From the IMG/VR virus record IMGVR_UViG_3300042887_001434, positions 3,021 to 67,020 of that record: a DNA stretch of 64,000 bases; one strand, given 5' to 3'. Both the position numbers and the translations under genes were made by a program. The stretch comes from a virus. Shown here piece after piece: positions 37,710 to 58,185 of this stretch (within the stretch, counting starts at the first letter, position 1; every line of letters begins with the position of its first letter). Below the pieces are notes generated by a model that saw nothing but the letters and a program-made list of their open reading frames with translations, was not told the DNA's origin and made no database searches.

Positions 37710-38108
37710 CTAATATCTCCGTTCGTCAGGAGAACGATTAATAGTTGTTGTTTTTTCGTAAGGAGAACGATTAAAAGTTTTATTACTATTTATTCCTCCA
37801 CCACCACCACCACGTCCTCCACCACCACCCATTGGCGAGTAACCAAATGCTCCGTATTTTTGTTGAAAACCAGTTTCACTTAACCAAGAATCTTTTTGTG
37901 ATGGATCTAACCCCTTGGATTTATTTGGGTCCGATGCTATGCTCCTTTGCTCATTTGAACGCTTTAGATCTGATTCATATTGAGCACCAGTCCTAGCATA
38001 ATATGTTTTTAAATCTTCATTTGGTCTAATTGGATTTTTAGCAAATGCTTTTTGCTTTTCTTCTTCAGATATTCTGTTGTACGAATTATTTATATAAGAT
38101 CCTAACAT
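37710..38108 (-). CDS. Low-complexity hypothetical protein
   Basis: 132 aa with a Gly run and a NRSP repeat. Confidence 0.55.
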   Translation of the reverse strand: MLGSYINNSYNRISEEEKQKAFAKNPIRPNEDLKTYYARTGAQYESDLKRSNEQRSIASDPNKSKGLDPSQKDSWLSETGFQQKYGAFGYSPMGGGGGRGGGGGGINSNKTFNRSPYEKTTTINRSPDERRY

Positions 38109-38321
38109 AATTTTTAATAGTTTAATTTTCCAAGTTCGCTTGCCTTAACTTTTCCTGTGATTCTATTTTTTGTAAATCCTTTTTTTCCTTTTGCTTGCTC
38201 TTTAGTTATAAATGCTGCACTATCTTTTGTATCACGATAGGGGAACGGCAAACCCATCTTGTCGTAAGATTTTTCAATAGAATTCTTTTTCATTATTTAA
38301 GCATATAACATTTACACAATT

Positions 38322-38570
38322 ATGAGTAAAGAGGAATTATTTAAACTTTATTTAAAAAAAACTCCAGCATTATCTGAAGATAAAATTACTTTCACTAAAG
38401 CTGGATTAAAGAAATTCTTTGAAACAACGTATGAGGTTGCTTACAAACAAGGTTTCCGTCAGATGCCAGAAAGCGACGAAGATCTTGATGAAGATGTTGG
38501 CTACACTCCACATCACAAGAATTCCTCAAAGGGATTAGATGACTTGATGAAAATATTTAAAATGAGTTGA
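38322..38570 (+). CDS. Hypothetical protein
   Basis: 82-aa ORF upstream of dnaB. Confidence 0.6.
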   Translation: MSKEELFKLYLKKTPALSEDKITFTKAGLKKFFETTYEVAYKQGFRQMPESDEDLDEDVGYTPHHKNSSKGLDDLMKIFKMS

Positions 38571-38595
38571 CATGCTTCACGGCACTACATATAGT
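38567..38595 (+). promoter_or_regulatory. Sigma70-type promoter for dnaB
   Basis: TTGACA-N17-TATAGT ending 10 nt before ATG 38606. Confidence 0.7.
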
Positions 38596-38605
38596 GCATA
38601 CGAAC

Positions 38606-39871
38606 ATGAACACAATACTACCACACGACATGGAGGCAGAGAAAGGTTTTCTCTCTTCCGCAATGCAAGATATAAGAGTCATAGAGAAGACAATAGAGAA
38701 GTTAACTCCTGAGTTCTTTTACTTCGATAGTCACAAAATAATCTGGAATGCAATTAGCCAAATGTGGCTAGATAAAAATCCAGTTGATATGCTGACTGTC
38801 ATTTCTTTTTTGCGATCATCTGGAGAACTAGACAGGATCGGTGGAGATCACTATGTCTCTGAGTTATATACTATCGTTTATAGCTCAGCTAACTGGACAT
38901 CATACTTTGAGACGATTAAGGATTGCATGGTACGTAGAAAGATTCTTTCTGTGTGCAAGCGCATGATGAACGATGCTGTTGACCGCACAAAAGATCCAAT
39001 CGAGCTACAAGAAGAAGCAAGCAAGGACATTGTTTCGATGTCATCAACTAGGACTGAAGTAAAACATATCGGAGATGTTTTAAACTCCTGCATCAATCGT
39101 TGGGAGGAAGCTGCTGTTACGAATGGGGCAGTCAATCGTGGACACTCATCTGGATTTATGAAGTGGGATATGGCAACCAGAGGGTTTCGCCCACGCACAC
39201 TTCATATCATTGCTGGAGCAGCTAAGGCTGGAAAGACTACATCATCGCTACAGATGGTAACAAACTCAGCATTCAATGACGATGTTCCAGTAGCTATCAT
39301 CAGCATGGAGATGTCCGCTGAAGAATTGGTTGACAAGTATATTGCAGCTACAAGCAGGATTGCTTTAAGCGATCTTCTCGATGGCAAGTTAAAGAACGAA
39401 GACCACAAGAAGTTATCAGCAGCTATCAACAAATCATCTAAGTTGCCGATATACATCGTAGATGAAGCGTCAATGACTGTAGCACAATTTAAAGCTCGCT
39501 GCCGTAGGTTGGTCACAGAACAGAAGGTAGATATCATAATGGTCGATTACGCTCAATTAATGGAGGCATCTGGAGATCCCAAGAATCGTGAACGTGAAGT
39601 AGCGGAAGTTAGCCGCACTGCAAAGATCATCTCAAAAGAATTGAATGTTTGTATTGTATTGTTAGCTCAGTTGAACGAGAATGGTTCAGTACGTGAATCA
39701 AGAACATTCTACATGGATTGCGATAGTTTTACCAAGGTAATACCAGATGAAGAGAAGCGTGATGACCCATATGCATATATCATGCACGTCACTCATAACA
39801 GGCATGGTGGGACTCCAATGATTCCATTCAAGTTTATCAAGCACCAAGCTAGGTTTGAGGAACAGATATAA
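38606..39871 (+). CDS. dnaB: Replicative DNA helicase, DnaB family
   Basis: LPHDMEAEK N-domain, Walker A GAAKAGKT, SMEM, IMVDYAQL, LLAQLN, HNRHG. Confidence 0.95.
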   Translation: MNTILPHDMEAEKGFLSSAMQDIRVIEKTIEKLTPEFFYFDSHKIIWNAISQMWLDKNPVDMLTVISFLRSSGELDRIGGDHYVSELYTIVYSSANWTSYFETIKDCMVRRKILSVCKRMMNDAVDRTKDPIELQEEASKDIVSMSSTRTEVKHIGDVLNSCINRWEEAAVTNGAVNRGHSSGFMKWDMATRGFRPRTLHIIAGAAKAGKTTSSLQMVTNSAFNDDVPVAIISMEMSAEELVDKYIAATSRIALSDLLDGKLKNEDHKKLSAAINKSSKLPIYIVDEASMTVAQFKARCRRLVTEQKVDIIMVDYAQLMEASGDPKNREREVAEVSRTAKIISKELNVCIVLLAQLNENGSVRESRTFYMDCDSFTKVIPDEEKRDDPYAYIMHVTHNRHGGTPMIPFKFIKHQARFEEQI

Positions 39872-39912
39872 TTTGCGGTATATATCAACATTAAAGTAAT
39901 AAGCATCAAAAG

Positions 39913-40110
39913 ATGACAAATATGAAAACATATAAGATAAAATATAACTCAGAAAAAAACTTGTTCTCTGGAGAGTTGTTTACCAAAGCAAACGAACCTA
40001 GCGTTGCAATGGGTACATTCTTTGATTGGCTAAAAGAGCAATCTGTTTGGAAGCATCTTTGGAGAATCAACATTGAAATTGAAGAGATTAAGAATGGAGA
40101 ATGGATATGA
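39913..40110 (+). CDS. Hypothetical protein
   Basis: Small ORF in a tightly packed plus-strand run. Confidence 0.55.
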   Translation: MTNMKTYKIKYNSEKNLFSGELFTKANEPSVAMGTFFDWLKEQSVWKHLWRINIEIEEIKNGEWI

Positions 40111-40394
40111 GTGACACACCAGAAACGGATTCAATGGTTGACCCGCATTTATACAATTTTGTTCGTGCAAAATTCGCTCGCAAGTTAGAACGCGAGCGCG
40201 ACGAGGCTTTATCACAGATTGTTCAGGCTGAGTGCCGTGCAGAACGATTTTGCCAAGAACGTGATGAGGCTAGGAATGATATTGTTGGATGGGAAAATAA
40301 ATGGAAATGTGCTGTAGATATGGCAGCGAGAGCATCAATTGAACGTGATGATGCATTAAATAAAATAAAAGAATTAAACGACATATTACGATAA
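40101..40394 (+). CDS. Hypothetical coiled-coil protein (TPETD...FARKLERERDEA)
   Basis: ERD[ED]A motif three times; paralogous to the next gene. Confidence 0.65.
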   Translation: MDMSDTPETDSMVDPHLYNFVRAKFARKLERERDEALSQIVQAECRAERFCQERDEARNDIVGWENKWKCAVDMAARASIERDDALNKIKELNDILR

Positions 40395-40588
40395 TGTACA
40401 ATACACCAGAAACAGATAAGGAAACTGAATCACAGAAAGATCCAGCATTACGTGGGAAATATGTTCCCGTTAAATTTGCTCGTAGCTTAGAGAAAGATGT
40501 ATATAATTTAACTGATCAAAGGGATTTTTGTATGGAAATTATAGATAAGCTAGAAAAAAGAATTGAATCTTTGAGGGGGAACAAATGA
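40394..40588 (+). CDS. Hypothetical protein, paralog of the upstream gene
   Basis: TPETD...VKFARSLEKD. Confidence 0.6.
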   Translation: MYNTPETDKETESQKDPALRGKYVPVKFARSLEKDVYNLTDQRDFCMEIIDKLEKRIESLRGNK

Positions 40589-40896
40589 CAAAACAAGAAG
40601 CAATACAGGATCAGATAGACAATATCATGGACACATTTGAATTCGATAGAGTTCAAACTGTAATGACCGCATTAGACTGGAAATGGTATTCACATGAAGA
40701 TATTCCAGGAATAGTTGAGATCAGGCAGAGTGCAAGGAAGACTCTAAATGTTTTAAAGGGAGATTACAGGACATCTGGTTCTGGTGGATTTACTGCAACT
40801 AAAGAATGCGGAGAAGATGACGGGAAACCTTGGGTTAGAATATCTTTGTTCTTTGGACTAGAAGAATCTGGAGATGGAGTATCATATGACAAGTAA
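40585..40896 (+). CDS. Hypothetical phage protein
   Basis: IDNIMDTFEFDRVQTVMTALDWKW...SGGF.A; coupled start/stop. Confidence 0.65.
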   Translation: MTKQEAIQDQIDNIMDTFEFDRVQTVMTALDWKWYSHEDIPGIVEIRQSARKTLNVLKGDYRTSGSGGFTATKECGEDDGKPWVRISLFFGLEESGDGVSYDK

Positions 40897-41074
40897 GAAA
40901 AAGTTCTATGATTCTGACCACGGAGAGAGACAATCCTACGTTATGGTTAACAATAACTGGATACCAGTAAGTGAGACAGAGTTCTTGAATATCGAGGAAG
41001 ACCTACAGGGGTACGACCTAATGACATTCAAATACAAGGGGAAGCAATATCGGTCCCGTGTGACTATCAGATGA
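40874..41074 (+). CDS. Hypothetical protein
   Basis: Overlapping small ORF in the operon; true start may be 40886. Confidence 0.55.
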   Translation: MEYHMTSKKKFYDSDHGERQSYVMVNNNWIPVSETEFLNIEEDLQGYDLMTFKYKGKQYRSRVTIR

Positions 41075-41274
41075 ATACACTAGAACATTATGTTAGGGTA
41101 AGGAAGCTAAACGCTGATAGCATCATGGATCAGTTGCAGGATAATGGGGTAATTAGTGATGAATGTATTAAACCATATGATGTTATTGATTCAGGGAAAG
41201 CAGTTGCTTGGCTAGAACGAATGGACATTGGAAAAGTTTCTTTAGATATTGGTGAAAAAAAATTTGATTTTTAG
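41071..41274 (+). CDS. Hypothetical protein
   Basis: ATGA overlap with the upstream ORF. Confidence 0.55.
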   Translation: MNTLEHYVRVRKLNADSIMDQLQDNGVISDECIKPYDVIDSGKAVAWLERMDIGKVSLDIGEKKFDF

Positions 41275-41297
41275 CATATATAGTGCATACTTATGTG

Positions 41298-41427
41298 AGT
41301 AGGCAGATTGATTTACGGATGACTAGCAAAAGAAATTTTATATACTAGCACATCGAGGTCGGGGAGTTTTTAAACTCATAACCTTTGGAACCCGAATCTG
41401 ACGAGGTGGTATACCGCCTTTCCTACT
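41298..41427 (+). ncRNA. Candidate multi-stem structured RNA or leader
   Basis: Nested pairings AGTAGG/CCTACT, CAGATT/AATCTG, GATG-CTAG/CTAG-CATC, CGGG/CCCG, GAGTTT/AAACTC, GGTGG/CCGCC; begins just after a TTGATT...CATACT promoter-like site. Confidence 0.5.
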
Positions 41428-41440
41428 TTACAATTTTAAC

Positions 41441-41620
41441 ATGAAAACCAAGACATACACTGAAAGGCATCGTAATGGAAAGGGCGATAAGCCAAGACCT
41501 GGGACGTATGGTAAGCAATACCAAGAAAACTGGGATGCTATCGACTGGTCTAGGAACAAGAAGGACAAGTCCATTAAATCTAAAAGAGATCTTGGTGCTA
41601 CATTAGATGACTTTGAGTAG
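41441..41620 (+). CDS. Small phage protein
   Basis: 59 aa, GKGDKPRP...YQENWDAIDW; below the ORF track cutoff. Confidence 0.65.
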   Translation: MKTKTYTERHRNGKGDKPRPGTYGKQYQENWDAIDWSRNKKDKSIKSKRDLGATLDDFE

Positions 41621-41881
41621 CACAGACTTTATAAAGCAAAACAAAATCGTTTGGATCGGAAATGAAGAACGTGCTTTATAAATCACTACTGTTTTACTCG
41701 GTGGGAGCAGTGATTCGCGCCCTTTATTCAGAGCAAAAAAACGAGAACTTAATTTCAAACTCACTCGGATGTTTAACTTCCCTCAAAAGTTACTGCCAAC
41801 ATGAATTAACATGTGAGCCTAGGTGACGATCTAGGTAAGAGTGCCTACTTTAGTTTAGAAAACATTAACAATATTCCTTCT

Positions 41882-42175
41882 ATGAATGAACAAATCATCA
41901 AAGTCATAAACTCAATCACCAAAAAAGTAGATAAAGGCACGGAAGACGTAAAGGAGATGGCAGGGATCATAACCGAAATCATCAACGATAGAGACGAGAA
42001 ATTCGCAGCACTCACCCACGAACTCACAGAAGCCTACCTAGAGATAGAGAAGCTAGAAGAAGAGAATGACATCATGCGATCCGATCTCTCAGTCATCCTC
42101 GACTACATGAAAAAGAATAATATCAATATGACTTATGTGGTAAAATTCCGTGAAAAGGAAAAAGAGGGCCAATAA
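41882..42175 (+). CDS. Coiled-coil hypothetical protein
   Basis: ATG at 41882 within track ORF 41813-42175. Confidence 0.55.
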   Translation: MNEQIIKVINSITKKVDKGTEDVKEMAGIITEIINDRDEKFAALTHELTEAYLEIEKLEEENDIMRSDLSVILDYMKKNNINMTYVVKFREKEKEGQ

Positions 42176-42329
42176 TCTACCAACACTATACCATTTCTCG
42201 CACATCTACCATAGTTTAGTGCGTACATAATTTCCTCGCAAGGCTGAGAAATCTCGGTTAGCAGGGGACAAGGGGGTTGGCTGTGCCCCCAAAAACCACA
42301 GCCCCAATTTTTAAAAACACAAACTTAAC

Positions 42330-42412
42330 TGGCAATTGGCGAAACGGCAGACGCAGGAGACTTAAAATCTCCTATCAGTAATGATGTGCGGGTTCAACTC
42401 CCGCATTGCCAA
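42330..42412 (+). tRNA. tRNA-Leu(TAA)
   Basis: Acceptor TGGCAAT/ATTGCCA, anticodon arm GGAGA-CTTAAAA-TCTCC, long variable arm, T arm GCGGG-TTCAACT-CCCGC; CCA not encoded. Confidence 0.92.
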
Positions 42413-42416
42413 CTTC

Positions 42417-42489
42417 GGGGGTGTAGCTCAATGGTCAGAGCAGTCGGCTCATAACTGATTGGTTGTCGGTTCAAATCCGTCCACCCCCA
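42417..42489 (+). tRNA. tRNA with CAT anticodon, probably Ile2 (lysidine type) rather than Met
   Basis: Acceptor GGGGGTG/CACCCCC, anticodon arm GTCGG-CTCATAA-CTGAT, TTCAAAT T loop; resembles bacterial tRNA-Ile2 and lacks initiator features. Confidence 0.88.
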
Positions 42490-42534
42490 CTTTTCTGAAA
42501 TCAACGACTTACATAGAATCGTGCGTATAGCTTA

Positions 42535-42837
42535 CGATATAGTCAGAGTACATCAGGCGATATAGTCACCTTACATCGTGCGATATAGTCAGAGTATAGC
42601 TAGAGTATAGTCAACGTATACACACTTATACTCGATTCCGTGTATAACAACGTATACACACTAAATTCCCATGCACATCTCGACATGTACCGAGGTATCC
42701 TTCCACTCAGTTATCCCCATATACAGCAAAGTAGCCTCCCACCTACGCAGCTATCCCCTAAACCGCATATTCCCCTCTTATACGCAACTCCGCTTAGTGA
42801 CAAATACTAGGTACTATTTGTCACAAAGTTATCCCCA
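42535..42837. repeat. Iteron-like direct repeats and an inverted repeat
   Basis: CGATATAGTCA at 42535, 42558, 42581; CAACGTATACACACT at 42612 and 42648; TTATCCCCA at 42711 and 42829; GTGACAAATA/TATTTGTCAC at 42797-42824. Confidence 0.8.
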
Positions 42838-42994
42838 CACACACTAACTTCACTACACATTAAGCCACACTTAACCAAAACGTCAAATTATAGGCAGATA
42901 CACATCTTGGCTATGATGTGACGTTAAGGGTATAAAAAGGCTTTACAGGGCATTCTCGTGCGATTGCGGGTATAGTTTAGGGGAGAGAGATATT

Positions 42995-43250
42995 CTTTTT
43001 TATTTTTTATTTTTAATTTTATTTTTTAGGGAATTCTCTCAGGTCCTTTTTTTACGCCCCGTGGCTGGTGCTCGGCCCTCCCCCACCCTCCACCCCTCCC
43101 GTCCCTCCCGCCGTTCCTGCCATGTTACCACCGCCCACCGCCCCACGCCCACGCACACACACAAGGGCAGTCCATCACTCCATCACTCACTCACTCCATC
43201 ACTCCATCACTCACTCACTCGCTCAGCCTGTCAGCCTGTCAGCCTGTCAC
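42995..43250. repeat. T-tract, C-run block and short tandem repeats (putative genome terminus)
   Basis: T-rich 42995-43028, many C3-C5 runs 43076-43150, TCCATCAC/TCAC repeats, GCCTGTCA x3. Confidence 0.7.
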
Positions 43251-43704
43251 GTTATTATTGCAAGCTACTTGCATGGATCTTTGTAATCCATTGTCAATCA
43301 ATAGCTTGCATCAATAACATCTCATAATACAGATAATGCATAGGGAAAATCCTTTGCGCTATAAAGCCCGTGTGATGGTTTTATTTTCTTGGCAATGTAT
43401 CCACACCCGACACAATCAAAAGCCTTGCCATTGGCAACGTGACGCAATACCTAGCCAATCGTTTTATTGCAAGCAACTTGCAAGAATATGGGGAGGGTTT
43501 TCTTGTGTGGCCATTGGCTCATTTGCTGTATACAGCGAGACTAGGAAAATTGATGCAAGCTATTTGCAATAAGATTCCCTAGTTTTACTTCCTAGTGAAA
43601 TAATCCTTCCCAAGTGAAATCAAACCCTTCCCCTAGTCTGTCCCTAGTTCCTCCCATATTCTCCCTCTATTTTCCCATCTAATCCATTGAAAACCCTTTT
43701 AATC

Positions 43705-43721
43705 TTGGCATGGCAAATGCT
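43705..43721 (+). promoter_or_regulatory. Sigma54-type promoter 1
   Basis: TTGGCATGGCAAATGCT, GG-N10-GC. Confidence 0.7.
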
Positions 43722-43870
43722 ATGCAATCCCGCAATTCACTTGAATTGATTCACTTACAAAGAATACCTCCAATCTTGCTAGGCAAATCCTGCCAATAGG
43801 CAAATTGTGTCTTTTTGCATAAGTGTCTTATATTTAAAGTGATGCCTGTTTTCACTAGGTAAATCCTGCC

Positions 43871-43887
43871 ATGGCACAGATAATGCT
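43871..43887 (+). promoter_or_regulatory. Sigma54-type promoter 2
   Basis: ATGGCACAGATAATGCT, GG-N10-GC. Confidence 0.7.
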
Positions 43888-43924
43888 ATGCACTTTTCAT
43901 TGTGTTTTTACCCTCTTGGAATAG

Positions 43925-43941
43925 TTGGCACACGTCTTGCT
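43925..43941 (+). promoter_or_regulatory. Sigma54-type promoter 3
   Basis: TTGGCACACGTCTTGCT matches TGGCAC-N5-TTGCT exactly, about 35 nt before the first early gene. Confidence 0.8.
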
Positions 43942-43975
43942 TAGTATTATATGAGGCCAAGCCTCACACAATAAC

Positions 43976-44656
43976 ATGAAACTACTATCAATAGACACTA
44001 ATACTAAAACAATCAAAGGACAAGCCTTTGGATACATGACGGGAATCCTTTATCTAGCTCCCGCTGATTATTCGGGGCGAAATGTCTGTGTTCATTCCTC
44101 CGCTGGATGCCGTCTTGCATGTTTATTCTCGGCTGGACGTGGCGCATTTGCAAATGTGATATCAGCTAGACTCCGCAAGACCCTTTCATTCTTCAAAGAT
44201 AAGGACGGATTCTTGAATGATATTCGTACCGATATTAAAGCCTTGATAAAGAAATCAGCTAAGGCGGGAATGAAGCCTTGTGTGCGGCTGAATGGAACAA
44301 GCGATATCCCATGGCATAATTTCGGCATCATGGAAGAATTCCCAGACGTTGCTTTTTATGACTATACTCCGCATAAGCAAAGAATGCTTGATTTTCTTGA
44401 TGGAAAGCTTCCCGCAAATTATTCACTCACATTTTCCCGCAAAGAAGATAATTCCCAAGCTTGCGAAGAAATCATCCAAAAAGGAGGCAATGTTGCCGTA
44501 GTGTTTAAAACGATTCCCAAGACATGGGAGGGGAAAGAGTGTTTTTCTGGTGATGATTCTGACCTGAGATTTCTTGATCCGAAAAACGTGATCGTAGCTT
44601 TGAAAGCTAAGGGGAAAGCTAAAAAAGACACTAGCGGATTTGTAGTCCAGGCGTGA
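43976..44656 (+). CDS. Gp88-like protein (radical-SAM-like Cys cluster)
   Basis: NVCVHSSAGCRLACL, VRLNGTSDIPW, FYDYT, YSLTFS, GDDSDLRFLD. Confidence 0.75.
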   Translation: MKLLSIDTNTKTIKGQAFGYMTGILYLAPADYSGRNVCVHSSAGCRLACLFSAGRGAFANVISARLRKTLSFFKDKDGFLNDIRTDIKALIKKSAKAGMKPCVRLNGTSDIPWHNFGIMEEFPDVAFYDYTPHKQRMLDFLDGKLPANYSLTFSRKEDNSQACEEIIQKGGNVAVVFKTIPKTWEGKECFSGDDSDLRFLDPKNVIVALKAKGKAKKDTSGFVVQA

Positions 44657-44741
44657 TTAGATTCCCTCCCCTTTCCATGAGAGGGGAGTAATCTGACCAT
44701 ACATGGCAGAAAACAACACACAATAAAACACACAATAAAAC

Positions 44742-44975
44742 ATGAGAACAATATCACAAATCGCAAGGGAAATTCGTGCCGATTGGACAAAGGTTAACTT
44801 TGCAGCCAAACCCTACCTCGCCGAAATGCTACACCTCAACACACTAGATGACGCTTGCGGACATGACAGCGCGAAAAGCATAGTGCTATACTTCTTAGCT
44901 AATGCATCAACATATCGGGGTGAAAAGGCTAAGGCTTTAAAGCTCGAGCTGAAAACACTTTGCAACATCAAATGA
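44742..44975 (+). CDS. Small early phage protein
   Basis: IAREIRADW..VNFAAKPYL..M...SIVLYFLANA...RGE.AK..K.ELK. Confidence 0.7.
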   Translation: MRTISQIAREIRADWTKVNFAAKPYLAEMLHLNTLDDACGHDSAKSIVLYFLANASTYRGEKAKALKLELKTLCNIK

Positions 44976-46112
44976 CAACATCACCATACCTCGAAATCAT
45001 CAGGCTAATGCCTCCAGTAATTAAAATCGAAAAGCGATTTTTCCCGCTTCGATGGGTACTTTTCATCGATCATCAGTGGGAAGGAACCTTCCCAACTAAA
45101 AAAATGGCAATAAAACACACTCAGAACACACTAAAAAAATGAACACACTTGTCATTGAAACACCAGATCAGCAAAAATATTGGCGCATCCTTCAGCTACG
45201 CTCCGCACTACGTCTTGAATGTGCGGGAATGAAACACTCAAGTGGGCGTTCTGTTTGCCCTATTGTTAAACAAGAATTCAAATTCAAAGGATCAAAGCAA
45301 TCCGTTTTAGATCAGCTTTGTAAACACATCGAAAATATCAAAGCTTCAAACTATCAAACACTATGAAACACAAAATCGGAAAATTCACTCTTGAGCTTTC
45401 GCATGATGGTGAAACCATTTACGGAGACATAGAATGCGGAGAATTCACTGCATCACTATGCCATGCCGAGGATACTGGCTCGCTATACAATGACGACGAC
45501 ACAAAACGACTTCCTGTCCCACGATCCGTTCTGGATAAATGCTGGAAATTTGAACAAGAATTCTTTGAAAGATTAACGAAATCAACACTATGAAACGCAA
45601 AACACAAAACAAAACAGGAATATTTCAATATTCGCAAGGGACACTTGAACAAAGGTATGAAAATTACCTCACCCTCTCAGATGATGGCAATGGCAACGAC
45701 AAAAACACGGGAAAACCCCTAAAAAGCTTTGATGAGTGGCTTAACTCTTAACTATGAAAACACAATGCATCTGCGAAGAGGGCATTTGGCGTGACAATTG
45801 CGCCTTATGCGAAGGCACAGGGTACAAAATCGACTTTGAAGCAATCAGAAAACGAAACACTATGAAAATCACAATCCGCACAAAATATATTCCAGCCACA
45901 GACACAAAGGGCGCGAAAATCATCGCCACAGGCATGGGAAAACAGAAATCAATCCCCTATCCTTACGAACTTTCAGGCGAAGCTGTCCACATTAAAGCGG
46001 CACAAGCTTGGGTGGATTTTCACTTGTCACGACAAGGTTGGTCTGACCCTTCGCATATCAAAATCGAAACACTCTACACCCCTAAGGGCTACGTTCACAC
46101 AATAAAATGAAC

Positions 46113-46129
46113 TTGGCATGATAGATGCT
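46113..46129 (+). promoter_or_regulatory. Sigma54-type promoter 4
   Basis: TTGGCATGATAGATGCT, intergenic, upstream of ATG 46177. Confidence 0.7.
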
Positions 46130-46335
46130 ACGTAAAACACGCAGGAACACATAAACACAAACACAAACACAAACACATGAGAACACGCATTTTAAATGAT
46201 CCAGAATACGCATATTTGACATGGTTTAATGATTTTTTGACAATCAAACGCTTTGCAGAATATTTTCAACTTGAAATAACACACGCAAAAACACTCATCC
46301 AAGCAGGCAGGGAATTAAACCACGCAAAATAAAAC

Positions 46336-46352
46336 TTGGCACACTTAATGCT
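46336..46352 (+). promoter_or_regulatory. Sigma54-type promoter 5
   Basis: TTGGCACACTTAATGCT, intergenic, upstream of ATG 46397. Confidence 0.72.
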
Positions 46353-47915
46353 GAGTAATAATCGCAGTAAACCACACAAAATAGAACACACACAAAATGA
46401 ACACACAAAAAGCAGTCCTTGAATTAGTTAAACTCCTCTCACAAGCAATCGACGTGATCCGCGAATACAATGGAGAAAATGATGCCGATTACCTCGAAAA
46501 AGAGATGCAAACCATTATCGATTCAATCAAAAAATAGAACACACTTATGACAAAAGCAAATGAATTGGCAATCCTCACCGATTGCGTCCAAAAATTAGGC
46601 TCAGACAGCTATTGCGGTGAATGGCTCAAATCTGTCCTGCCAGAAGTCGAATGGCTCATGCGAACCGATATGATTCCAACCCTTACAATCGCCGAAACAC
46701 GCTCACAATGTGATGCCATGCGGAAAGAAGCTGTCCAACATTGTGACAAAATCACTTACAAAGCTGTCGCAGATGCCGACAAAATTGTGAATGACGCATA
46801 TGCGAAAGCAAACGGAATTAGAATGATGCTCAAGCGCGATATTCAAAAAGCATTGGAAATTGTTTAACAATAACACACAACATAAAACACACTATGAAAA
46901 CTAACAATCAAAACGACACTTGCAAAATGGCTGTCCATTTTTGGGGAAAACAAAATAAAAAGTAAAACATTATGAACATATTAAAGCCAATACTCAAGAA
47001 TCTATTGTATCAAACAGAACAAATGCAAGGGCTTTTCAATGATGAGGATGGAACGATACAGGAAGCTATAAATGAAGCACAGGAAGCTATAGATGAATTA
47101 GATGAATTAGAACGCAAAACACAAAACAAAACATATGTTTGCTCACATTGCAAATCGGAAAACATTTGGTTCGATTCGATTATGGCATGGAATAAAGAAA
47201 AGCAGAAGTTCCAACTAGAAGATTTAGGAAAAGCATTTTGCAACGATTGCCAAGGCGTAACAACAGACGAGGAAATAACACAATGAAAACCATGAAAAAT
47301 AAACACGATTACCATACCTTCCCAACACCTGAAGGTATCTACGTATCAATTCACCAAGAGGACGAGCTTCGGCAAGACTTCGGGCCATTCACAAGCCAAC
47401 GTAATGCAAACAATGCCGCCCACAACGAATGGACACGTCAACTAGGAGAGTCTATGAAAAATAGACTTTCTAAAATGGGATTTTCGGATGATTTCCTAAA
47501 AAATAATTTAATCGTAATGTAATATATGAAACACGATAAACGTAACACAATATTATTCAACATTGCAGGGTTAACGCTCATAAAATTGAGCTTTGAGGAT
47601 CATGGCAAGGTTTATAAATACATCGTCGATGATGTGTCAAAGTATGGAGAAATTAAAGGCGCAGACAGGGAGTATTTTTTAACTGAATATTATGAAGACC
47701 AGATGGCAGAACACTTTGGACTAAATTGGGTTGATTTAATCTCAGTAATCCTTGTGGAGTTAAACTTAGCAGGAAAATACACAAAAAAATGAAAACAAAC
47801 AAATTAAAACAAATCGAAGAGAAAATTGATAGGGAATACAAGATCATCCGCTACGCCTTGCTATTTCTCAACACAAACATGGCAGATTCCGTAGCAAAAG
47901 ACATATCAAAACTCA

Positions 47916-47932
47916 TTGGCACGATAGATGCT
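47916..47932 (+). promoter_or_regulatory. Sigma54-type promoter 6
   Basis: TTGGCACGATAGATGCT, inside the end of one ORF, upstream of ATG 47979. Confidence 0.65.
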
Positions 47933-49930
47933 ACGAAACTAGAGCAGGAAATCGACGAAATCATCAAACACTATTAACATGAACACACTAGAAATATATC
48001 CAAATCCTTTCTTTAATAAAGAAAAAGAAATGTTTAGTCACTATGAAATAATGTCTTGTGCCGATTACAAAGATGCAAATGGAAACACATTTACAGAACC
48101 ATTTATGTCAGACAGCAATAAAGAAAACATAATTGGATCAGTTTTTTATACAATATATGGAAGACAAAAAGATCATGGAGCAGAATGCATTGGTGATTTT
48201 GTTACCTTGGATGATGCAAGAGACATTCTAAAAAAAATGGGAGTAATTTAATGAAAATGAAATACAAAATCCAAATGGTAAATGCCCTCAACCAATGGGG
48301 CGACATGAAAGAGAGTGAAGGAGGAGATTACGAAACGCTCTTGTTTGACTCCAAGCAAGATGCAAGAGACGAAATCAACGATATGTGCGAGGAGCTATCA
48401 GAAGGAACCTCCTCATATCGAGTGGTCAGAGAAGACAAGAAACAAGACGTAGACTATTACAATTAACACACTTACAACAATATGAACACACACAAAATAA
48501 CAATAGAACAAACACGCTTAGTTGAAGTATCAGTAAAAGCGGATACATTGGAAGAAGCTGAGTCCCTTGCAATGGATTCCATTCCTCATGTATTCCAACC
48601 AGAGATCAATTCAAATATGCAATATGTATATGGAACCGCACAGATATTGCCTTCACAATCAGAATTCGATGTGGACAAGACGTTCACCTCGGTAGATGGA
48701 GCAATCTCCTACATAAAATCTCAGCGAGATCCATTCGATTGCCTGTTCAGATACATAAAACATCAAAGCTATTGGGGAGAATTAAAACTAGCCTCAGAGA
48801 TACTTGCATCAGCCACAGATATTATCGAAGCACAGGAAGGATTTGGATACTAATATGAACACACAACAAAACTGGCAATGTGATGGACAGAAATTCATCT
48901 ACGATGCCAACGACACGCAAGCGACTTCAGACATTTGCGAAATGGTAGGTCTGGATGACGATACACGAAGAAAAAATGCACGACTAATATGTGCCGCTCC
49001 AGCAATGATGGAAGCATTAAGATATGTCATCGACAATGTAGATAACGAAGACGTAGTTGAAAAGTGCGTTGCCGCATTTATGAAAGCACAAGGTTTAAAG
49101 ATGGAAGGAAATATAGTCAAAGCATTATGAATAACGAGATTACACATATGTTAATTAGGGTATTTTTCTTCATACATGAGACAATAGTTTCATGCGTAGG
49201 CATTGGGATAAGCATGCAATGCAACCAACCAATGTCCTATGTGTGCCAACTTAACTTTGAACACCTAGCACGATGATAAAACTGCGATTACCAACCCGAT
49301 CTGGTCACAAGCTAGACGTGGAGTTTTACGAAGATGGAACTATGGTAGCCAACGGAGGCGTAGAGATGACAGCTTCCGTTTTAAAGCCAAAGCTGACACG
49401 CTTTGCATGGAGTTTAATTCTGTGCCACCGCAAGGAGGACGCAGGAGTTAAAGCAGCAGCAGAAAAACTACTAACAGCATACTAATGAAAACACATAACA
49501 AAACATACGCACGAAACTACGAAGGGGATCGTCCCTTGTGGACACCAGCAGTCTATTTCAGACTTGCTACAACTAAAAAACACACGACATTATGGGATAA
49601 GATAATATCTTTTTTATTATGAAAATGTTCCAACTAAACAGCACAAAACCAGCAACTAAGAATCAGTTACAACTTCTTGCTTTACTAAAAAGTAAATACA
49701 ACATTCCAGTTGGAGACATCTGGAAACTCACAATGAAGCAAGCATATATGCAAATAATGGAACTATACACATTCAAACTAAACTAATATGCCATACGAAG
49801 AAGAGTACGACTACGGAAAATACGATGATGAAATGCGGGAACAACGAGAGGAGGAACACAATTACAGGTGCGCTAGGCGAGACATGGACCAAGGAATAGA
49901 ACCTGATTGCGAATATTAAAAACCCAACTT

Positions 49931-49963
49931 AAAGGCGGCATGAGAAATCATGCTCCCTTTTTT
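49931..49963 (+). terminator. Terminator at the convergence of the early and minus-strand operons
   Basis: GCATGA-GAAA-TCATGC hairpin followed by CCC and a T run. Confidence 0.7.
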
Positions 49964-49964
49964 A

Positions 49965-50507
49965 TTACTCGCATGAGTATATAGTATCATGCAGTTTTAG
50001 TTTTGGAAGATTGCTATTGGTAAATGACAAGTCAATGAATGCAACCCTGTTGGTTGGCTGAATGGTTAGCCTTCCATTCGACAACTGGATAAATATAAAC
50101 TCTTTATCTTGCTCTGGAGAGTCTGACCAACCATCTTGCAAATGAGTTGTGGAAAACAAATACGTTCCAGAAAATATCTTGTCTTTAATCTTTGTCGTAA
50201 CTGGTAGTCCAGCAAGGATTGGGTTTTGTAAAACCGCAAAGTTATATGAATAGCAATTCCATAGTTGCGAATCTTGAACATTCCAGTTAATCGAATCCTT
50301 TTGAAACCTAATTGCATGAGGTGGCACGTTACGATACAATGCTCCTCCATCCCTCAAGATCACATTGATTCCCCACACTCTCGATGGTATCGATGTCAAA
50401 CCAACCCACATTGCCTCTACTGGGCCTATTGGATTTTCGTGGGTGTATTGGCTATCAACCCATATGTATCGGTGGGTTTGTAATGCACCGATTTTTGTGT
50501 ATTTCAT
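49965..50507 (-). CDS. Hypothetical protein
   Basis: 180 aa, GALYRNVPPHA...QLWNCYS...IQPTNR; overlaps the terS stop. Confidence 0.7.
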   Translation of the reverse strand: MKYTKIGALQTHRYIWVDSQYTHENPIGPVEAMWVGLTSIPSRVWGINVILRDGGALYRNVPPHAIRFQKDSINWNVQDSQLWNCYSYNFAVLQNPILAGLPVTTKIKDKIFSGTYLFSTTHLQDGWSDSPEQDKEFIFIQLSNGRLTIQPTNRVAFIDLSFTNSNLPKLKLHDTIYSCE

Positions 50508-51004
50508 TGCTCTAAGAGGTTTTGTTTCGGAGAATCAATGGTCAACCTATCGTCGATAAGTTGGATTAGAACTTGATTCTTGTCATCAGATTCACGCAAC
50601 TCCCCTGCAATCTTTGCATCTAGCTCGATAGCTTTGAGCTTATCGGAAATCTTTGGCCCCTGTATGCTCCTGTTACCTTCTCCATCAATGGTGATGGATG
50701 CAAACTGACTCTCTTCTGTTACTTCATTTGGCTTTACCCTTGCCAAATCAGCAAGCATCGAACGCTTTTCTGCTATTGTTAAAACATTCTGAACCCACTC
50801 AGACTCACGTAGATGTTTGATATATTCCTTAACGTGAGGACGTTGCTCAATTTTAGCACCTCGTATTGACGCATATTTATTTTCAATCTGCGTGTACCCT
50901 GCCTTTAAGTAGGATTGAGATAAAGACATACCACGCACTCGATTAAGTGCGTAGTTCTTCTGCTTCTCCGTTAAATCCTCGTAGGTTTTTCTATGCGCTG
51001 CCAT
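50504..51004 (-). CDS. terS: Terminase small subunit
   Basis: LTEKQKNYA...SQSYLKAGY HTH, P.VKEYI..L, DKLKAIEL..KIAG. Confidence 0.8.
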   Translation of the reverse strand: MAAHRKTYEDLTEKQKNYALNRVRGMSLSQSYLKAGYTQIENKYASIRGAKIEQRPHVKEYIKHLRESEWVQNVLTIAEKRSMLADLARVKPNEVTEESQFASITIDGEGNRSIQGPKISDKLKAIELDAKIAGELRESDDKNQVLIQLIDDRLTIDSPKQNLLEQ

Positions 51005-51977
51005 TTTTTTCGATCATTTTATTTAGAATATCCTGTGTCTTATCGCTTAACTCATGGAAAATCTCACGCAGTTTTCCAAGGAAAAACTCACGATCAATCT
51101 CACTCGCTTCAGCGGACAAGCAATGTTTGATGGCGAGGATCAAGAGTTGCTCTGAACCTCCGAAATGTTTAGTCCACTTATCACTTTTAACAACCTTACC
51201 TAGTGGCTCCTGACCTTTGATCATTTTAACGTGACTACGGGCCTCGGCGCATGACCACTTCTCAGCCCTTGCTTGTTGGACCAACTCTAAAACTTGCTTG
51301 TTGTTTTCGATTTCATTGTCAGAAAATTTAGCAGTTGCAATTTCAATAGCTACAGTTGGAGAAATCTCATGCCGAAGATGAATCGGGATTCTTTGTGCGG
51401 CACGATGCCAATTAGAAACGTGCGAGTAGGACAACTTTAGACTAGCCGCAATCTGTGCCAATACATTCTCATGCCCCATTGCCATAAGGTGACGGATACC
51501 ATCGCCAGCAAGCCACATTCCCTTGCTAGACATATCAACTCCCATACCGATAGCACCAGCATAATCCTCTGGCGTTGGTATGACCCCTGCCTTTGGCTTA
51601 AACTGCGTCATGTGAGGACCGAAGTCATACCTCTCAGCCAACTTGGAGTAACCATTATCTAAGCGAGTATCAATGGCAGCATCTAAGATTGACTGATCTG
51701 AACCCACCTCAAATTCTGGCTTGCAGATCGCAACAGGCAACTCATCCACATTTCCATCCGTAAATTCGATAATGTGACACGCTTCCTCTAACAAAGCGTA
51801 GTGATTTGTAGGAGAGTCCTCTTCGATCTCATCCTCTTTCTCGCAAACTTTGATTAGAGTTAGTGCAGTTTTAACGTCTGTTTTATGTTTGGCTGCAAGC
51901 ATTTCTGCAAATTGCATCCTGTCCATCATGCCACTTGGCGTTTTAAATTGACCACGTAGTTTATGTTCTGTTTTCAT
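50991..51977 (-). CDS. Hypothetical protein with possible HTH
   Basis: 328 aa; W..GD...QIAASLKLSYSHVSNW..AA; sigma54 motif upstream. Confidence 0.65.
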   Translation of the reverse strand: MKTEHKLRGQFKTPSGMMDRMQFAEMLAAKHKTDVKTALTLIKVCEKEDEIEEDSPTNHYALLEEACHIIEFTDGNVDELPVAICKPEFEVGSDQSILDAAIDTRLDNGYSKLAERYDFGPHMTQFKPKAGVIPTPEDYAGAIGMGVDMSSKGMWLAGDGIRHLMAMGHENVLAQIAASLKLSYSHVSNWHRAAQRIPIHLRHEISPTVAIEIATAKFSDNEIENNKQVLELVQQARAEKWSCAEARSHVKMIKGQEPLGKVVKSDKWTKHFGGSEQLLILAIKHCLSAEASEIDREFFLGKLREIFHELSDKTQDILNKMIEKNGSA

Positions 51978-51991
51978 TCGGAGATTTACAT

Positions 51992-52008
51992 AGCATTTAT
52001 CATGCCAA
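51992..52008 (-). promoter_or_regulatory. Sigma54-type promoter 7
   Basis: Reverse complement is TTGGCATGATAAATGCT, ending 14 nt before ATG 51977. Confidence 0.7.
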
Positions 52009-52010
52009 TG

Positions 52011-52253
52011 TTATTGGAAATCGTTTACCTCTGCCCAATTTATCTTTATGTCTTCATAGATTGGTTTGCATGGCGGGGTCTTTAGCTTAACCCCGCATGC
52101 TTCGCGTAACCATAATTCAATAACCAACCTAGCTTGCATCGAAGCAGTCCTGTAATTCAGCTTTGCGCTTTTCTCTACTTCGCGCATGATTTGTTTTGTT
52201 ACAATGACTCCAAGGTGGTGCGAGTCTAGGTCTGGGTCTTTGATTACTGACAT
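52011..52253 (-). CDS. Arc-like ribbon-helix-helix protein
   Basis: LGVIVTKQIMREVEKSAKLNYRTASMQARLVIELWL. Confidence 0.6.
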   Translation of the reverse strand: MSVIKDPDLDSHHLGVIVTKQIMREVEKSAKLNYRTASMQARLVIELWLREACGVKLKTPPCKPIYEDIKINWAEVNDFQ

Positions 52254-52367
52254 GATTCACATTCGGGATCGTCGATGCGACAAACTTTTACCTTTTCATC
52301 AGCAAAATCATCATCAACATCGTCACGATTAGTGCTATTTGAAACCATTCCATTTGGCTCATCCATA

Positions 52368-52592
52368 TTACCAAGGAATATCATCTTTTGTTTCAGATGC
52401 TTTTGCTTCTTTTACGTATGGTTCACGAACTGAGAGAGAAGTGAATTCAGTTCCTTTAGCTGAAGTTTTTTTCCAGCCCGAAATCTCCCACTCTTTTCCT
52501 TCGATGTTGATTTGACCAGTAAAGTCTGGTTGCTTTTCATTTTTCTTTTTGTTCGTAAACAAAACGCCGCGATTTGTATTATCGTACTCCAT
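52368..52592 (-). CDS. Small ssDNA-binding protein (DUF736-like)
   Basis: GVLFTN.KK...PDFTG.I...G....ISGW with acidic DDIPW tail; next to Erf. Confidence 0.7.
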   Translation of the reverse strand: MEYDNTNRGVLFTNKKKNEKQPDFTGQINIEGKEWEISGWKKTSAKGTEFTSLSVREPYVKEAKASETKDDIPW

Positions 52593-52593
52593 A

Positions 52594-53325
52594 TTATTTA
52601 ACTAATGCTTTCCATTCTATAATTACGTTGGTTGTTTTTTCTAATTCTTTTAGAAACTTATCTGCTGTTCCTTCTTTCATAGCGAAGTAGTCTTTAGCTG
52701 CCGCTGGAATCGCTCCAGAATGGCGCATAGCTGCCATGAAATCGTCTTGGGTATGTCCTGCCTTCATTAGAGCTTGGAATAACTCTTGGTGTGAAGGACC
52801 ATTGAACTTGGAAGTCCCCGATTCAACTTTAGGTTCTTCTTGTTTGACTGGTTTAGGTTCTTCTTTCTTCGCAACCTTAATTTCTGGTTCGGCTTTTGTG
52901 AATGTTGGCTTATGTTGTTGGACATTTTGTGTCCTGCCCATTGCGACTTCACCATCGTCATCCTCTGGACAAATCATGGTCATTGCTTGGAGTGCATATC
53001 TGCGAGCGTAAGAAATCAAACTACCAACTCCTTGAGGATCGTCTTTCACTACCTTCATGTATGTCCTATTCTTAATCCATTGTCCGCTTCCATGGATCAT
53101 CATTGTTTCAACATAGTAGCCATGCTCATCGTGAGACGGCATCTGCACGATTGATAGTCCATGTTTAGTTAATGCAGGACGAACTGCCTCCCAAACTGAA
53201 GCAAGCGTAGCGTACTTCGATTTAAAAAAAGGATTAGCTGCATCCTTGATTACGATTCCGTTTTCGGCTTGCGCTTTTGCAAGAGCAACCGCTAATTCGC
53301 TGATGTCATCTGAGTGTGTGTTCAT
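52594..53325 (-). CDS. erf: Erf-family ssDNA annealing protein
   Basis: NPFFKSKYA.L, HGSGQW, PQGVGSLISYARRYAL, EDDDG. Confidence 0.92.
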   Translation of the reverse strand: MNTHSDDISELAVALAKAQAENGIVIKDAANPFFKSKYATLASVWEAVRPALTKHGLSIVQMPSHDEHGYYVETMMIHGSGQWIKNRTYMKVVKDDPQGVGSLISYARRYALQAMTMICPEDDDGEVAMGRTQNVQQHKPTFTKAEPEIKVAKKEEPKPVKQEEPKVESGTSKFNGPSHQELFQALMKAGHTQDDFMAAMRHSGAIPAAAKDYFAMKEGTADKFLKELEKTTNVIIEWKALVK

Positions 53326-55450: not shown

Positions 55451-56086
55451 TCAAAATAAAGCATCGTAGATAGCTGGGAATTCTTTTTTGAATATCACCT
55501 TTAATGCTTCAGCAATGTCTCTGTGTTCCTTCTGTGTGTCTTGATTACTGCGAAGCTGGAGGTAGGTTATCCATGAGCGAATAGTTCCAGACATATACAA
55601 GGTGGTCTGCGTGTTGAGAGGCAGGATAAATCTTGCCGATTCACGGGCAACACCAGAGTCTATTAGTTTATTGTACAACAATTGTGACTCATGTTGTAGT
55701 TGATACATCCAAGCTCTGTCCTCTGGAGCTAAATCAAAGTCTTCATCACCAACCTGACGATTTGTTTTACCCTGACGGCGCAATTCAATTGGCTCAAGTT
55801 CAGTTACCGATGAGTACCTTTGACTGAATTCTTGAAATGAAAACGACCTGTGACGTAGAATCTGTGCGGCTATAGCTCTACTTGTCTTGATTTCACAGCA
55901 CATATTTACCATCTCAAAGATTGACCAATGATGGTGGTCGGCACAATACCTCAACAACTTTGATGATGTTGAAGTATTGAGTTGGTTACTTGGATTTGAA
56001 ACCCTCGCACAATAAGCTACAAGCTCCTCTGCTGTGTTGATTCCTTCTACACAGGGTTTGGTGACGCTTATCAGTTTTACTTGCAT
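55451..56086 (-). CDS. thyX: Flavin-dependent thymidylate synthase
   Basis: CARVS, HWSIFE, RHRSFSFQEFSQRY, ESARFILP, TQKEHR. Confidence 0.95.
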   Translation of the reverse strand: MQVKLISVTKPCVEGINTAEELVAYCARVSNPSNQLNTSTSSKLLRYCADHHHWSIFEMVNMCCEIKTSRAIAAQILRHRSFSFQEFSQRYSSVTELEPIELRRQGKTNRQVGDEDFDLAPEDRAWMYQLQHESQLLYNKLIDSGVARESARFILPLNTQTTLYMSGTIRSWITYLQLRSNQDTQKEHRDIAEALKVIFKKEFPAIYDALF

Positions 56087-56613
56087 AGCTGATTTATATT
56101 TTTGCTCACCCACTCTGCCACACGAATAGCCTGTGGAGTTTCTTCTTTTATGATGGACTCATAGCACACATCACCATATGCACGGAATATCTGAATGTTA
56201 TTTAGCAACCATCCCATGTGGTAGCCTTGACGCATAAAGTCACGGAACTTCTCAGTCATTACTTTATCGAGAACATAATTCCTGCATCCGAATTTATGCT
56301 CCCAATACTCTTTGGGTTGGCAGTTGATATGCCCATGACCACCTTGCCCTGGAAGTGCCGCAGAAAACATAATGACTGGAGCTAATTCTATCAGCTTATC
56401 AACCACATAATCCGCTTCATATGGGTCGATATGTTCCGCAACCTCCAAGCAAAGTGCCATGTCATATCTTTCCTCAACAGAGTAATCAAACATGCTAACA
56501 ACCTTTTCAGGACACAATGGGTCAGGATCAATGCCATCTACGATAAATCCACAATCTCGCAGTGCCTTCACGTAGATTGCTGGACCACAACCGACATCAA
56601 TTATTCGTTTCAT
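56077..56613 (-). CDS. Class I SAM-dependent methyltransferase
   Basis: IIDVGCGP, DMALCLEVAEHI, FSAALPGQGGHGHINCQ. Confidence 0.88.
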   Translation of the reverse strand: MKRIIDVGCGPAIYVKALRDCGFIVDGIDPDPLCPEKVVSMFDYSVEERYDMALCLEVAEHIDPYEADYVVDKLIELAPVIMFSAALPGQGGHGHINCQPKEYWEHKFGCRNYVLDKVMTEKFRDFMRQGYHMGWLLNNIQIFRAYGDVCYESIIKEETPQAIRVAEWVSKNINQLCK

Positions 56614-58176: not shown

Positions 58177-58185
58177 TGAACTGTT

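Follow-up and report, generated by a model that had tools for sequence, protein, structure and literature searches.

Tandem and gene-proximal sigma-54-type (-24/-12) promoter motifs in the presumed early region of an uncultured phage

Phage early promoters are usually regarded as being of the sigma-70 type or as targets of phage polymerases. In T7, the promoters A1-A3 are three strong host-polymerase promoters in a row, of the sigma-70 type and in need of no activator, and in N4 the early promoters are hairpins read by a giant virion RNA polymerase. Here we describe a stretch of 64,000 nucleotides (nt), called the window below, which comprises bases 3021-67020 of the 67,020-bp IMG/VR virus record IMGVR_UViG_3300042887_001434, an uncultured phage, and which holds seven copies of a motif with the layout of sigma-54 (-24/-12) promoters, three of them in tandem before a block of small genes. 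In the accessible portions of the literature, only a single phage precedent was found, the sigma-54-like promoter P015 of the lytic Pseudomonas phage YuA, detected by promoter trap and ONT-cappable-seq (PMC10914365). As far as the available part of that paper goes, P015 is a single site among sigma-70-like and phage-specific promoters, whereas the phage described here has seven copies, including a tandem cluster, and the arrangement is found family-wide. Here, moreover, no other motif recurs in the intergenic DNA, from which an enrichment scan of 7-mers recovered TGGCACA and, apart from it, nothing but the A/C-rich leaders of genes.

The exact pattern TGGCAYNNNNNWTGCT (TGGCAY-N5-WTGCT, both strands) matched seven times in the window, compared to a mean of 0.27 and a maximum of 2 in 100 dinucleotide-preserving shuffles, none of which reached seven. 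GG-N10-GC spacing is exact in all seven sites, and each of them is oriented toward the next gene downstream. Six are intergenic by a crude gene call, which assigns 8.9% of the genome to intergenic DNA; the probability of six or more of seven falling there is 3.2e-6. The exception is the site at 47917, which lies in the final 60 nt of an open reading frame (ORF) of 62 amino acids (aa; 47789-47977). Relaxing the pattern to TGGCA-N7-TGC gave nine matches, namely the seven sites, an overlapping register at 43711 and one further match at 56318. A preliminary description of this DNA, made from the letters alone, had reported seven gene-oriented copies with exact spacing, six of them intergenic and three in tandem before the first gene of the block, and this was borne out in full; its sites are all real, with plus-strand starts given one base too low and the minus-strand end one base too high. 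It had also called for a comparison with shuffled sequence, which the counts above provide, and a weight matrix led to the same seven sites. That matrix was built from 17 sites of related phages only, none from the window, and was run over the whole 67,020-bp record. The seven sites were the top seven of the genome, with 16.8-22.6 bits, and the eighth match, with 16.5 bits, lacks the GG.

Three sites, P1 to P3, stand in tandem on the plus strand in a 403-nt gap before a GP88-family gene, with start-to-start distances of 166 and 54 nt. P1 (43706..43721, 22.1 bits) is an exact motif with a predicted +1 at about 43732, the +1 being placed 12 bases past the C of the GC in keeping with the usual sigma-54 geometry, and it is kept with a changed spacer in the two long close relatives, L003 and L004. 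P2 (43872..43887, 17.4 bits), also exact, has the repeat CTAGGTAAATCCTGCCA directly 5' of it. P3 (43926..43941) is kept in both L003 and L004, and from its predicted +1 at about 43952 a leader of 24 nt would run to the ATG of the GP88-family gene. Three more plus-strand sites are internal to the small-gene block: P4 (46114..46129), in a 66-nt gap, has a predicted leader of 37 nt to the ATG at 46177 and is kept in L004; P5 (46337..46352), in a 64-nt gap, has one of 34 nt to the ATG at 46397 and is kept in L003; and P6 (47917..47932), in the 3' end of ORF 47789-47977, has one of 36 nt to the ATG at 47979, scores 22.6 bits, the best of the genome, and is identical in L003 and L004. The only minus-strand site, P7 (51992..52007), lies in a gap of 33 nt, and 14 nt separate it from the ATG of a gene for a 328-aa protein; its predicted leader has 4 nt. 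Thus five sites have predicted leaders of 4-37 nt, with a site-to-start-codon distance of 34 nt for P3 and 44-47 nt for P4-P6, while P1 and P2 are the upstream members of the trio. Three sites in a row before the first gene of a block may be likened to T7 A1-A3, as the preliminary description had done; the T7 promoters differ in being of the sigma-70 type and independent of an activator.

The search pattern fixes only TGGCA, Y, W and TGCT, and leaves positions -27 and -20 free. Sigma-54 promoters have a pyrimidine bias at -27 and a G at -20, and positions -8 and -6 are outside their usual consensus. In 70 distinct sites of the phage family, -27 was T in 80%, and -20 was G in 74% or A in 26%; of 412 distinct sites among the IMG/VR matches listed, 81% had a pyrimidine at -27 and 73% had G at -20. 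The family sites have additional biases of their own at -8 (G, 70%) and -6 (A, 71%). The biases at -27 and -20 are also visible in the Salmonella site list of PMC3844500, and the consensus is printed as TGGCACN5-7TTGCT in the section of PMC12316311 at hand. All seven window sites have the GG at -24 and the GC at -12, 10 nt apart, that characterize this consensus. Table 3 of PMC3844500 tabulates Salmonella sigma-54 sites mapped by chromatin immunoprecipitation (ChIP), and an eye-count found exact agreement with the phage pattern in 9 of the 29 intergenic sites given there, the hycA and yeaG sites among them; some of the phage 16-mers differ from listed Salmonella sites in spacer bases only. Bacterial sigma-54 promoters, as represented by this ChIP set and by motif SM4 of Flavobacterium psychrophilum, therefore have the same blocks, spacing and -27/-20 biases as the phage sites. 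They differ in density, which is about 104 sites per Mb in the phage, compared to 13-18 sites in each of five Bacteroidota-labelled genomes of 2.4-6.5 Mb, and the phage sites are in addition tandem, have mostly A at -15 and come with no cognate activator gene or conserved enhancer.

The motif is conserved across a phage family spanning 56-98% protein identity, in which spacers and flanks vary and the GG/GC core is constant. Four contigs with 96-98% identity in the 328-aa protein retain sites whose spacers and flanks have changed. In close relatives, 15 of 60 N5 positions and 51 of 360 flanking positions differ, compared to 0 of 108 core positions, a figure that is partly circular because the sites were found by the motif. 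For a wider comparison, the aligned 328-aa protein was used to collect 34 family loci. In 16 of the 34, an exact motif lay no more than 90 nt upstream of the homologue, and three more had a one-mismatch form there, with at least seven different spacers. According to the site list, the gap between motif and ATG is 13-15 nt over about 40% protein divergence, placing the ATG 2-5 nt past the predicted +1; the constancy of this gap means that the ATG is always just past the predicted +1 and never inside the promoter. In the site table, all 16 loci reaching at least 7.5 kb further had at least one more site, and 14 of them had two or more. Since the tandem cluster recurs and the site before the 328-aa gene does so only partially, the conserved core consists of the cluster and, in part of the family, of the 328-aa site; judging from the loci compared, P4-P6 are a feature of the window phage and its nearest kin.

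An IMG/VR scan for two sites 30-60 nt apart also brought up distant relatives with 45-79% protein identity (among the matches listed) and a GC content of 45-51%, compared to 38% here. The five whole records G001-G005 held 3, 4, 4, 3, and 3 exact sites, respectively, compared to 0, 0, 1, 1, and 0 for the reversed pattern. The motif thus recurs in G001-G005 and in the phage family, as a scan of related phages, another check that had been proposed, was to establish. The wording of the preliminary description, that early transcription is built on sigma-54, holds for the tandem cluster better than for the whole early region, because distant members keep only 3-4 sites per genome.

No other promoter type was found to be enriched. 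Sigma-70-like sites, defined as TTGACA-N16-18-TATAAT-like hexamers, numbered 34 in 36500-53000, compared to 45.0 +/- 7.1 in shuffles, with none listed in the trio region (43700-43975), and TTGACA was depleted (22 copies, 42.5 expected). These numbers do not agree with the earlier suggestion that the replication genes use TTGACA-type promoters. The Bacteroidota primary-sigma motif, taken as printed in PMC9723704 (TTG at -33, TAnnTTTG at -7), had 5 matches in the window, compared to 6.15 in shuffles, and in four genomes this -33/-7 motif was not overrepresented over the 100 nt that precede genes. Both types were rejected as rivals on this ground.

The phage does not appear to bring its own factor to such promoters. 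A six-frame Pfam search of the whole 67,020-bp record gave no match to the sigma-54 domains PF04552 (Sigma54_DBD) and PF04963 (Sigma54_CBD), to the activator domain PF00158 (Sigma54_activat) or to PF04542 (Sigma70_r2). The search for single-subunit RNA polymerase (PF00940) was blank on the whole record as well, with a control that was silent everywhere, so that the blank result proves little. Walker A motifs occur only in the large terminase and DnaB ORFs of the record, and no GAFTGA-like motif was found in its ORFs. The same searches were equally blank for sigma factors and bacterial enhancer-binding proteins (bEBPs) in G001-G004; in G005, a weak PF00158 match is a 336-aa protein without GAFTGA, which we read as RuvB- or clamp-loader-like. 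Hence the statement that no sigma factor, RNA polymerase or AAA+ activator is visible stands for the sigma factor and the bEBP, over the whole record by Pfam, and for the polymerase it has only the blank search with the silent control behind it. As the phage encodes no such ATPase, either the host supplies the protein that opens the promoters or they stay closed.

Injection of an activator with the DNA, which had been offered as one way out, is without support. A possible vehicle would be a 3352-aa ORF of the virion module (13950-24008, minus strand), which carries an ART-PolyVal domain at residues 1423-1543 (E 1.7e-19) and a HELGH zincin-like motif at 1696 and has no Walker A motif. From its domains, it looks like an injected "polyvalent" protein. 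It showed no P-loop, no DxDGD-type polymerase catalytic motif and no sequence relative in the PDB, and its sole PHROGs match was phrog_4700, of unknown function. A giant virion-type protein together with three tandem sites also recalls phage N4. In contrast to N4, neither a polymerase domain nor a polymerase motif was detected in the giant protein, and the sites lack a common hairpin of a 5-7 bp stem and a 3-nt loop, their folds differing from site to site (z -0.15 to -2.95). An N4-like system was rejected for these reasons.

We think that the seven sites are probably real -24/-12 promoters, which would be recognised by the sigma-54 holoenzyme of the host and depend on one of its activators for opening. 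Motif sequence, orientation, distance to the start codon and conservation in the family all support the proposal of sigma-54 promoters, and for a phage without a sigma factor, a detectable RNA polymerase or an activator ATPase, dependence on host sigma-54 and a host activator is the most economical explanation. After entry of the DNA, host RNA polymerase with RpoN would bind the sites as closed complexes, through TGGCAY at -26 to -21 and WTGCT at -15 to -11. An ATP-driven host enhancer-binding protein, needed because the phage has no such ATPase, would open these complexes, and transcription would start about 12 nt past the C of the GC. The tandem trio would feed the GP88-family gene and the small-gene block, within which the three internal sites would re-initiate, and from P7 a transcript with hardly any leader would run through the ParB-like gene, the small terminase gene and one gene more. 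The plus-strand small-gene block is presumed to be the early block; P7, which heads a ParB-like gene and the small terminase, is not at the head of a typical early unit.

The most likely host for such a scheme would be a lineage without Shine-Dalgarno (SD) sequences that bears sigma-54, such as Bacteroidota, in which sigma-54 runs a chaperone, protease and envelope-stress regulon. Sigma-54 is no minor factor in such hosts, where abundant genes inducible by stress depend on it. The first phage transcription would then be plugged into a stress-responsive activator that is already on or is switched on by infection. With copies of such promoters, the phage would have the use of an activator that works when the envelope or the proteins of the host are under stress, possibly also the stress of infection. 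By analogy, the trigger could be supplied by a system such as the psp response, in which sigma-54 acts with PspF, released by envelope stress. The sigma-54 sites of pspA and pspG are among those given in the table of PMC3844500. The psp genes are a host operon, and the phage sites might, by this analogy, use a PspF-like activator. Regarding where an activator might bind, three exact palindromes TGCAAGC-N3-TTGCA (43259, 43468, and 43554, within 43255..43573) lie 135-450 bp upstream of P1. They are the only zero-mismatch matches in the window, all upstream of the trio, and are kept in L003 and L004, with none seen in more distant relatives; they are candidate enhancer or operator sites. Since the palindromes are not conserved in distant relatives and four sites have none nearby, an enhancer-independent activator without a DNA-binding domain would fit better. 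Such an activator exists as an experimental tool, as described in the accessible part of PMC3844500.

Evidence on the host points to Bacteroidota with a probability of about one half. SD-like 4-mers precede 11-23% of genes, compared to 10-13% at random positions, in the window and also in G001, G002, and G004, and the leaders contain 33-45% A, with peaks of A at -6, -5, and -3. F. psychrophilum is described as having no SD sequences in the part of PMC9723704 at hand. A 582-aa virion protein carries DUF6242 repeats, and among 14 control genomes DUF6242 matched only B. thetaiotaomicron. The SD-less, A-rich leaders and DUF6242 thus hint at Bacteroidota. In F. psychrophilum, a freshwater flavobacterium, a -24/-12 motif (SM4) was mapped by transcription start sites before groES-groEL, lon, dnaK and gliding genes; three PF00158 proteins are encoded there, and leaderless mRNAs make up 5.5% of the total (PMC9723704, as far as the text was available). 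In addition, the comparative study in PMC12316311, in its accessible sections, describes a chaperone/protease cluster as sigma-54-associated in Bacteroidota and Planctomycetota. Our own scan of five Bacteroidota-labelled genomes (2.4-6.5 Mb) found 13-18 copies of the motif in each, compared to 2-16 for the reversed control, and the genes downstream were uninformative. One of these labels is doubtful because the metagenome-assembled genome (MAG) has a flagellar gene. In a Flavobacteriaceae-labelled MAG, G008, two exact sigma-54-type sites in divergent orientation, with 70 nt between them, were seen at G008:C147 9989-10089 (L220, L225); the same MAG has a flagellar rod-like gene behind another site, and the bin may be mixed.

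Several observations weigh against host sigma-54 as the reader of these sites, in addition to the circularity of the core comparison. RpoN binding is read from the sequence. Position -15 is A in 69% of the family sites, compared to T in 83% of the IMG/VR-wide set (matches listed); A at this position does occur in real sigma-54 sites, such as those of hycA and zraP in the Salmonella table, as a minority form. The middle site of the trio, P2, is not retained as an exact motif in L003 or L004, and 15 of the 34 family loci, one clade at 56-63% identity, have no site before the 328-aa gene. No evident activator-binding site is present near four of the seven sites, the palindromes being confined to the region upstream of the trio and not conserved in distant relatives. 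The host assignment is weak: the TAnnTTTG -7 box has no excess upstream of genes, the GP88 homologues found at 28 loci in MAGs come from mixed phyla and none has the motif upstream, and no cultured relatives were found among GenBank phages or with the TerL, 771-aa and exonuclease queries. Lineages that are poor in SD sequences and have no rpoN exist. Such a host, for example a cyanobacterium, would sink the sigma-54 reading, and the Synechococcus control genome gave no PF04552 match. A profile search of genome contigs with the 328-aa alignment gave no match.

The pattern extends beyond this family. Tandem sigma-54-like sites occurred at at least 120 IMG/VR loci, compared to 8 for the reversed pattern and 31 for swapped half-sites, which makes the excess at least 4-fold on a repeat-driven background. 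The loci fall into at least 77 megablast clusters, of which at least 66 have two or more sites, and at least 48 have three or more, with differences at no fewer than 10 of the 27 positions left free. Most of the clusters share no protein with the window phage at a tblastn E-value of 1e-5 (among the matches listed). SD use across the tandem loci is mixed (median 0.32; of 97 loci listed, 47 below 0.3 and 21 above 0.5), and the wider pattern is therefore not confined to SD-less hosts. This excess suggests that the strategy is common and overlooked. That many uncultured phages start infection from sigma-54 promoter arrays, as a stress-triggered early switch that, in hosts such as Bacteroidota and Planctomycetota, lets the stress of infection fire the first phage genes through a borrowed host activator, works without a phage-encoded transcription factor and also draws holoenzyme away from the host stress response, is a tentative idea that we regard as rather doubtful.

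Some of these IMG/VR loci have peculiar layouts. L098 and about 16 similar loci (L007, L017, L058, L061 and others, among the matches listed) are linear contigs of about 11 kb with inverted terminal repeats, which encode a family-B DNA polymerase of the protein-primed type (PF03175) and have 2-5 inward-facing tandem sites per terminal repeat. L036 has 20 sites in about 4.5 kb (6480-8320 among the array positions), and L093, L022, L005, L111, and L102 have dense sigma-54-like arrays or back-to-back pairs (matches listed). Within arrays, the distance between some sites is only 10-12 nt, and in some divergent back-to-back pairs it is about 9 nt. Genes for PhoH and for a protein that weakly matches Sigma70_r2 are also present in the L093 group.

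Of the other explanations, the one that survives best is that the motif is the site of an unrecognised phage-encoded or virion-delivered factor, a novel sigma-like protein or polymerase, and merely resembles the sigma-54 consensus. There is room for such a factor in the 3352-aa protein and in most small ORFs and several large virion proteins, which have no family; the PF00940 control was silent, and the conserved -8 and -6 positions would be accounted for. We consider it unlikely. The same motif with the same free-position biases recurs in the at least 77 IMG/VR clusters, most of them without a shared protein, and this suggests a factor of the host that many phages use; no DxDGD-type motif, Walker A or PDB relative was found for the giant protein; and a trio before the first gene needs a factor that is present before any phage expression.

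A reading in which the sites do bind sigma-54 holoenzyme, mainly as stable closed complexes that serve as a sink for RpoN and RNA polymerase or as roadblocks or insulators, does not fare better and is likewise improbable. Closed complexes of this holoenzyme are stable and silent without an activator, according to the portion of PMC3844500 at hand, and this would agree with a phage that has no activator and with four of seven sites without a nearby palindrome. The trio also divides the replication and tRNA block from the small-gene block, both of which run in the same direction, as an insulator might. The packed IMG/VR arrays, such as L036, are too dense for all sites to fire, an argument that continues to speak for a sink or roadblock. 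A sink, however, needs neither orientation nor a fixed distance, whereas all seven sites are co-oriented with their genes, four of them stand 34 or 44-47 nt before a start codon, and the 13-15-nt gap to the ATG is kept across the family. Seven sites would also be few compared to the holoenzymes expected per cell.

Least of all do we expect the motif to be the operator of a phage or host regulator, for example a dimeric helix-turn-helix repressor on GCA-N7-TGC with a trio like the lambdoid triple operators, because despite the short inverted repeat GCA...TGC inside the motif, the three adjacent copies before the first gene, the many IMG/VR matches that are back-to-back palindromic pairs or 26-28-bp iteron-like arrays and the 31 loci left in the swapped-halves control with its repeat-driven background, the asymmetric TGG (left) and CT (right) are as invariant as the symmetric parts, orientation always follows the gene, the -27/-20 biases match sigma-54 sites and not a palindrome, and no repressor-like protein was found, most small ORFs being unassigned.

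Reading by host sigma-54, if correct, would have practical consequences. Sigma-54 promoters are silent without an ATP-driven activator, and a phage without one would therefore be hostage to the signalling state of its host. Infection is predicted to depend on rpoN and a host bEBP, and mutations in rpoN or the bEBP would be a route to phage resistance. The success of the phage in lakes would be tied to host stress or nutrient signalling, and the sites would provide a natural set of compact sigma-54 promoters for poorly tractable hosts.

Turning to the genes beside the sites, the first gene after the trio (43976..44656, plus strand) belongs to the GP88 family (PF17338, E 3.7e-43; phrog_1617), which is, by sequence match, a family label without a function. 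At another locus, L110, a tandem pair of sites also precedes a GP88 homologue. In the presumed early block of small ORFs that P4-P6 would serve according to the gene map (44742..49786, plus strand), five of six scanned ORFs had no significant family, and one matched a PHROG of unknown function. Leaders in this block are strikingly A/C-rich, for example with ACACAAA runs directly before the ATG. Between P1 and P2 (43779..43871, plus strand) are two exact copies of CTAGGYAAATCCTGCCA, the only two in the window, and GGYAAAYCYTGCC-like elements adjoin tandem sites in L003, L004, L019, L062, and L103, as judged by eye.

The unit downstream of P7 (49965..51977, minus strand) encodes the 328-aa protein, the small terminase (PF03592) and a 180-aa protein (phrog_3704). 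The gene of the 328-aa protein (50991-51977) adjoins that of the small terminase and is conserved across the phage family. No Pfam, PHROG, NCBIfam or PDB-sequence family was found for the protein. Its structure model had a pLDDT (predicted local distance difference test) score of 69.4, and the top 10 Foldseek matches were all ParB/Spo0J, with non-significant E-values of 0.28-0.54. The model thus weakly resembles the ParB/Spo0J/Noc DNA-binding fold, which is a lead only.

At the level of the whole genome, the ends of the record carry a 120-bp terminal repeat, which may only reflect circular assembly. Similar sequence was found in lake-water metagenome runs, with no RNA run among those listed. 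A long structural block on the minus strand encodes collagen-like tail fibres, the large terminase and the 3352-aa ART-PolyVal protein. It is followed on the plus strand by a replication block with a DnaB-like helicase and dCMP deaminase, then tRNA-Leu and tRNA-Met, a non-coding repeat-rich stretch of 1.4 kb (window 42500-43975) that separates the tRNAs from the first small gene, and the block of about 20 small ORFs (43976-49786). A second minus-strand block encodes the small terminase, ERF, a PD-(D/E)XK nuclease, ThyX, a methyltransferase and a glycosyltransferase. In the searches for cultured relatives, megablast of the region against GenBank phages gave no match, TerL gave two weak matches, the 771-aa protein gave none, and the exonuclease was at most 34% identical to proteins of spring-water, Stenotrophomonas and cyanophage records.

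The 1.4-kb stretch contains 8-nt CACTCCAT-like tandem units at 43168-43223, three 23-nt repeats (42526-42596), C-rich tracts and palindromes, and might serve as an origin or for packaging, or mark the true end of the genome. A 436-bp gap (36816-37251), which divides the divergent structural and replication blocks, contains GC-rich, structured-looking sequence and a strong terminator-like hairpin at 36901-36931; an Rfam search of it gave no match. The phage encodes dCMP deaminase, ThyX, two methyltransferase-like proteins and a group-1 glycosyltransferase (37252-37692, 55451-57728, 11830-12399), the last being 79% identical in the relative G004, and this set may point to modified DNA bases. Finally, a divergent intergenic region of 48 bp (58177-58224) is nearly filled by an inverted repeat, TTGAC(A/C)...GGTCAA, a possible operator between two opposed units.

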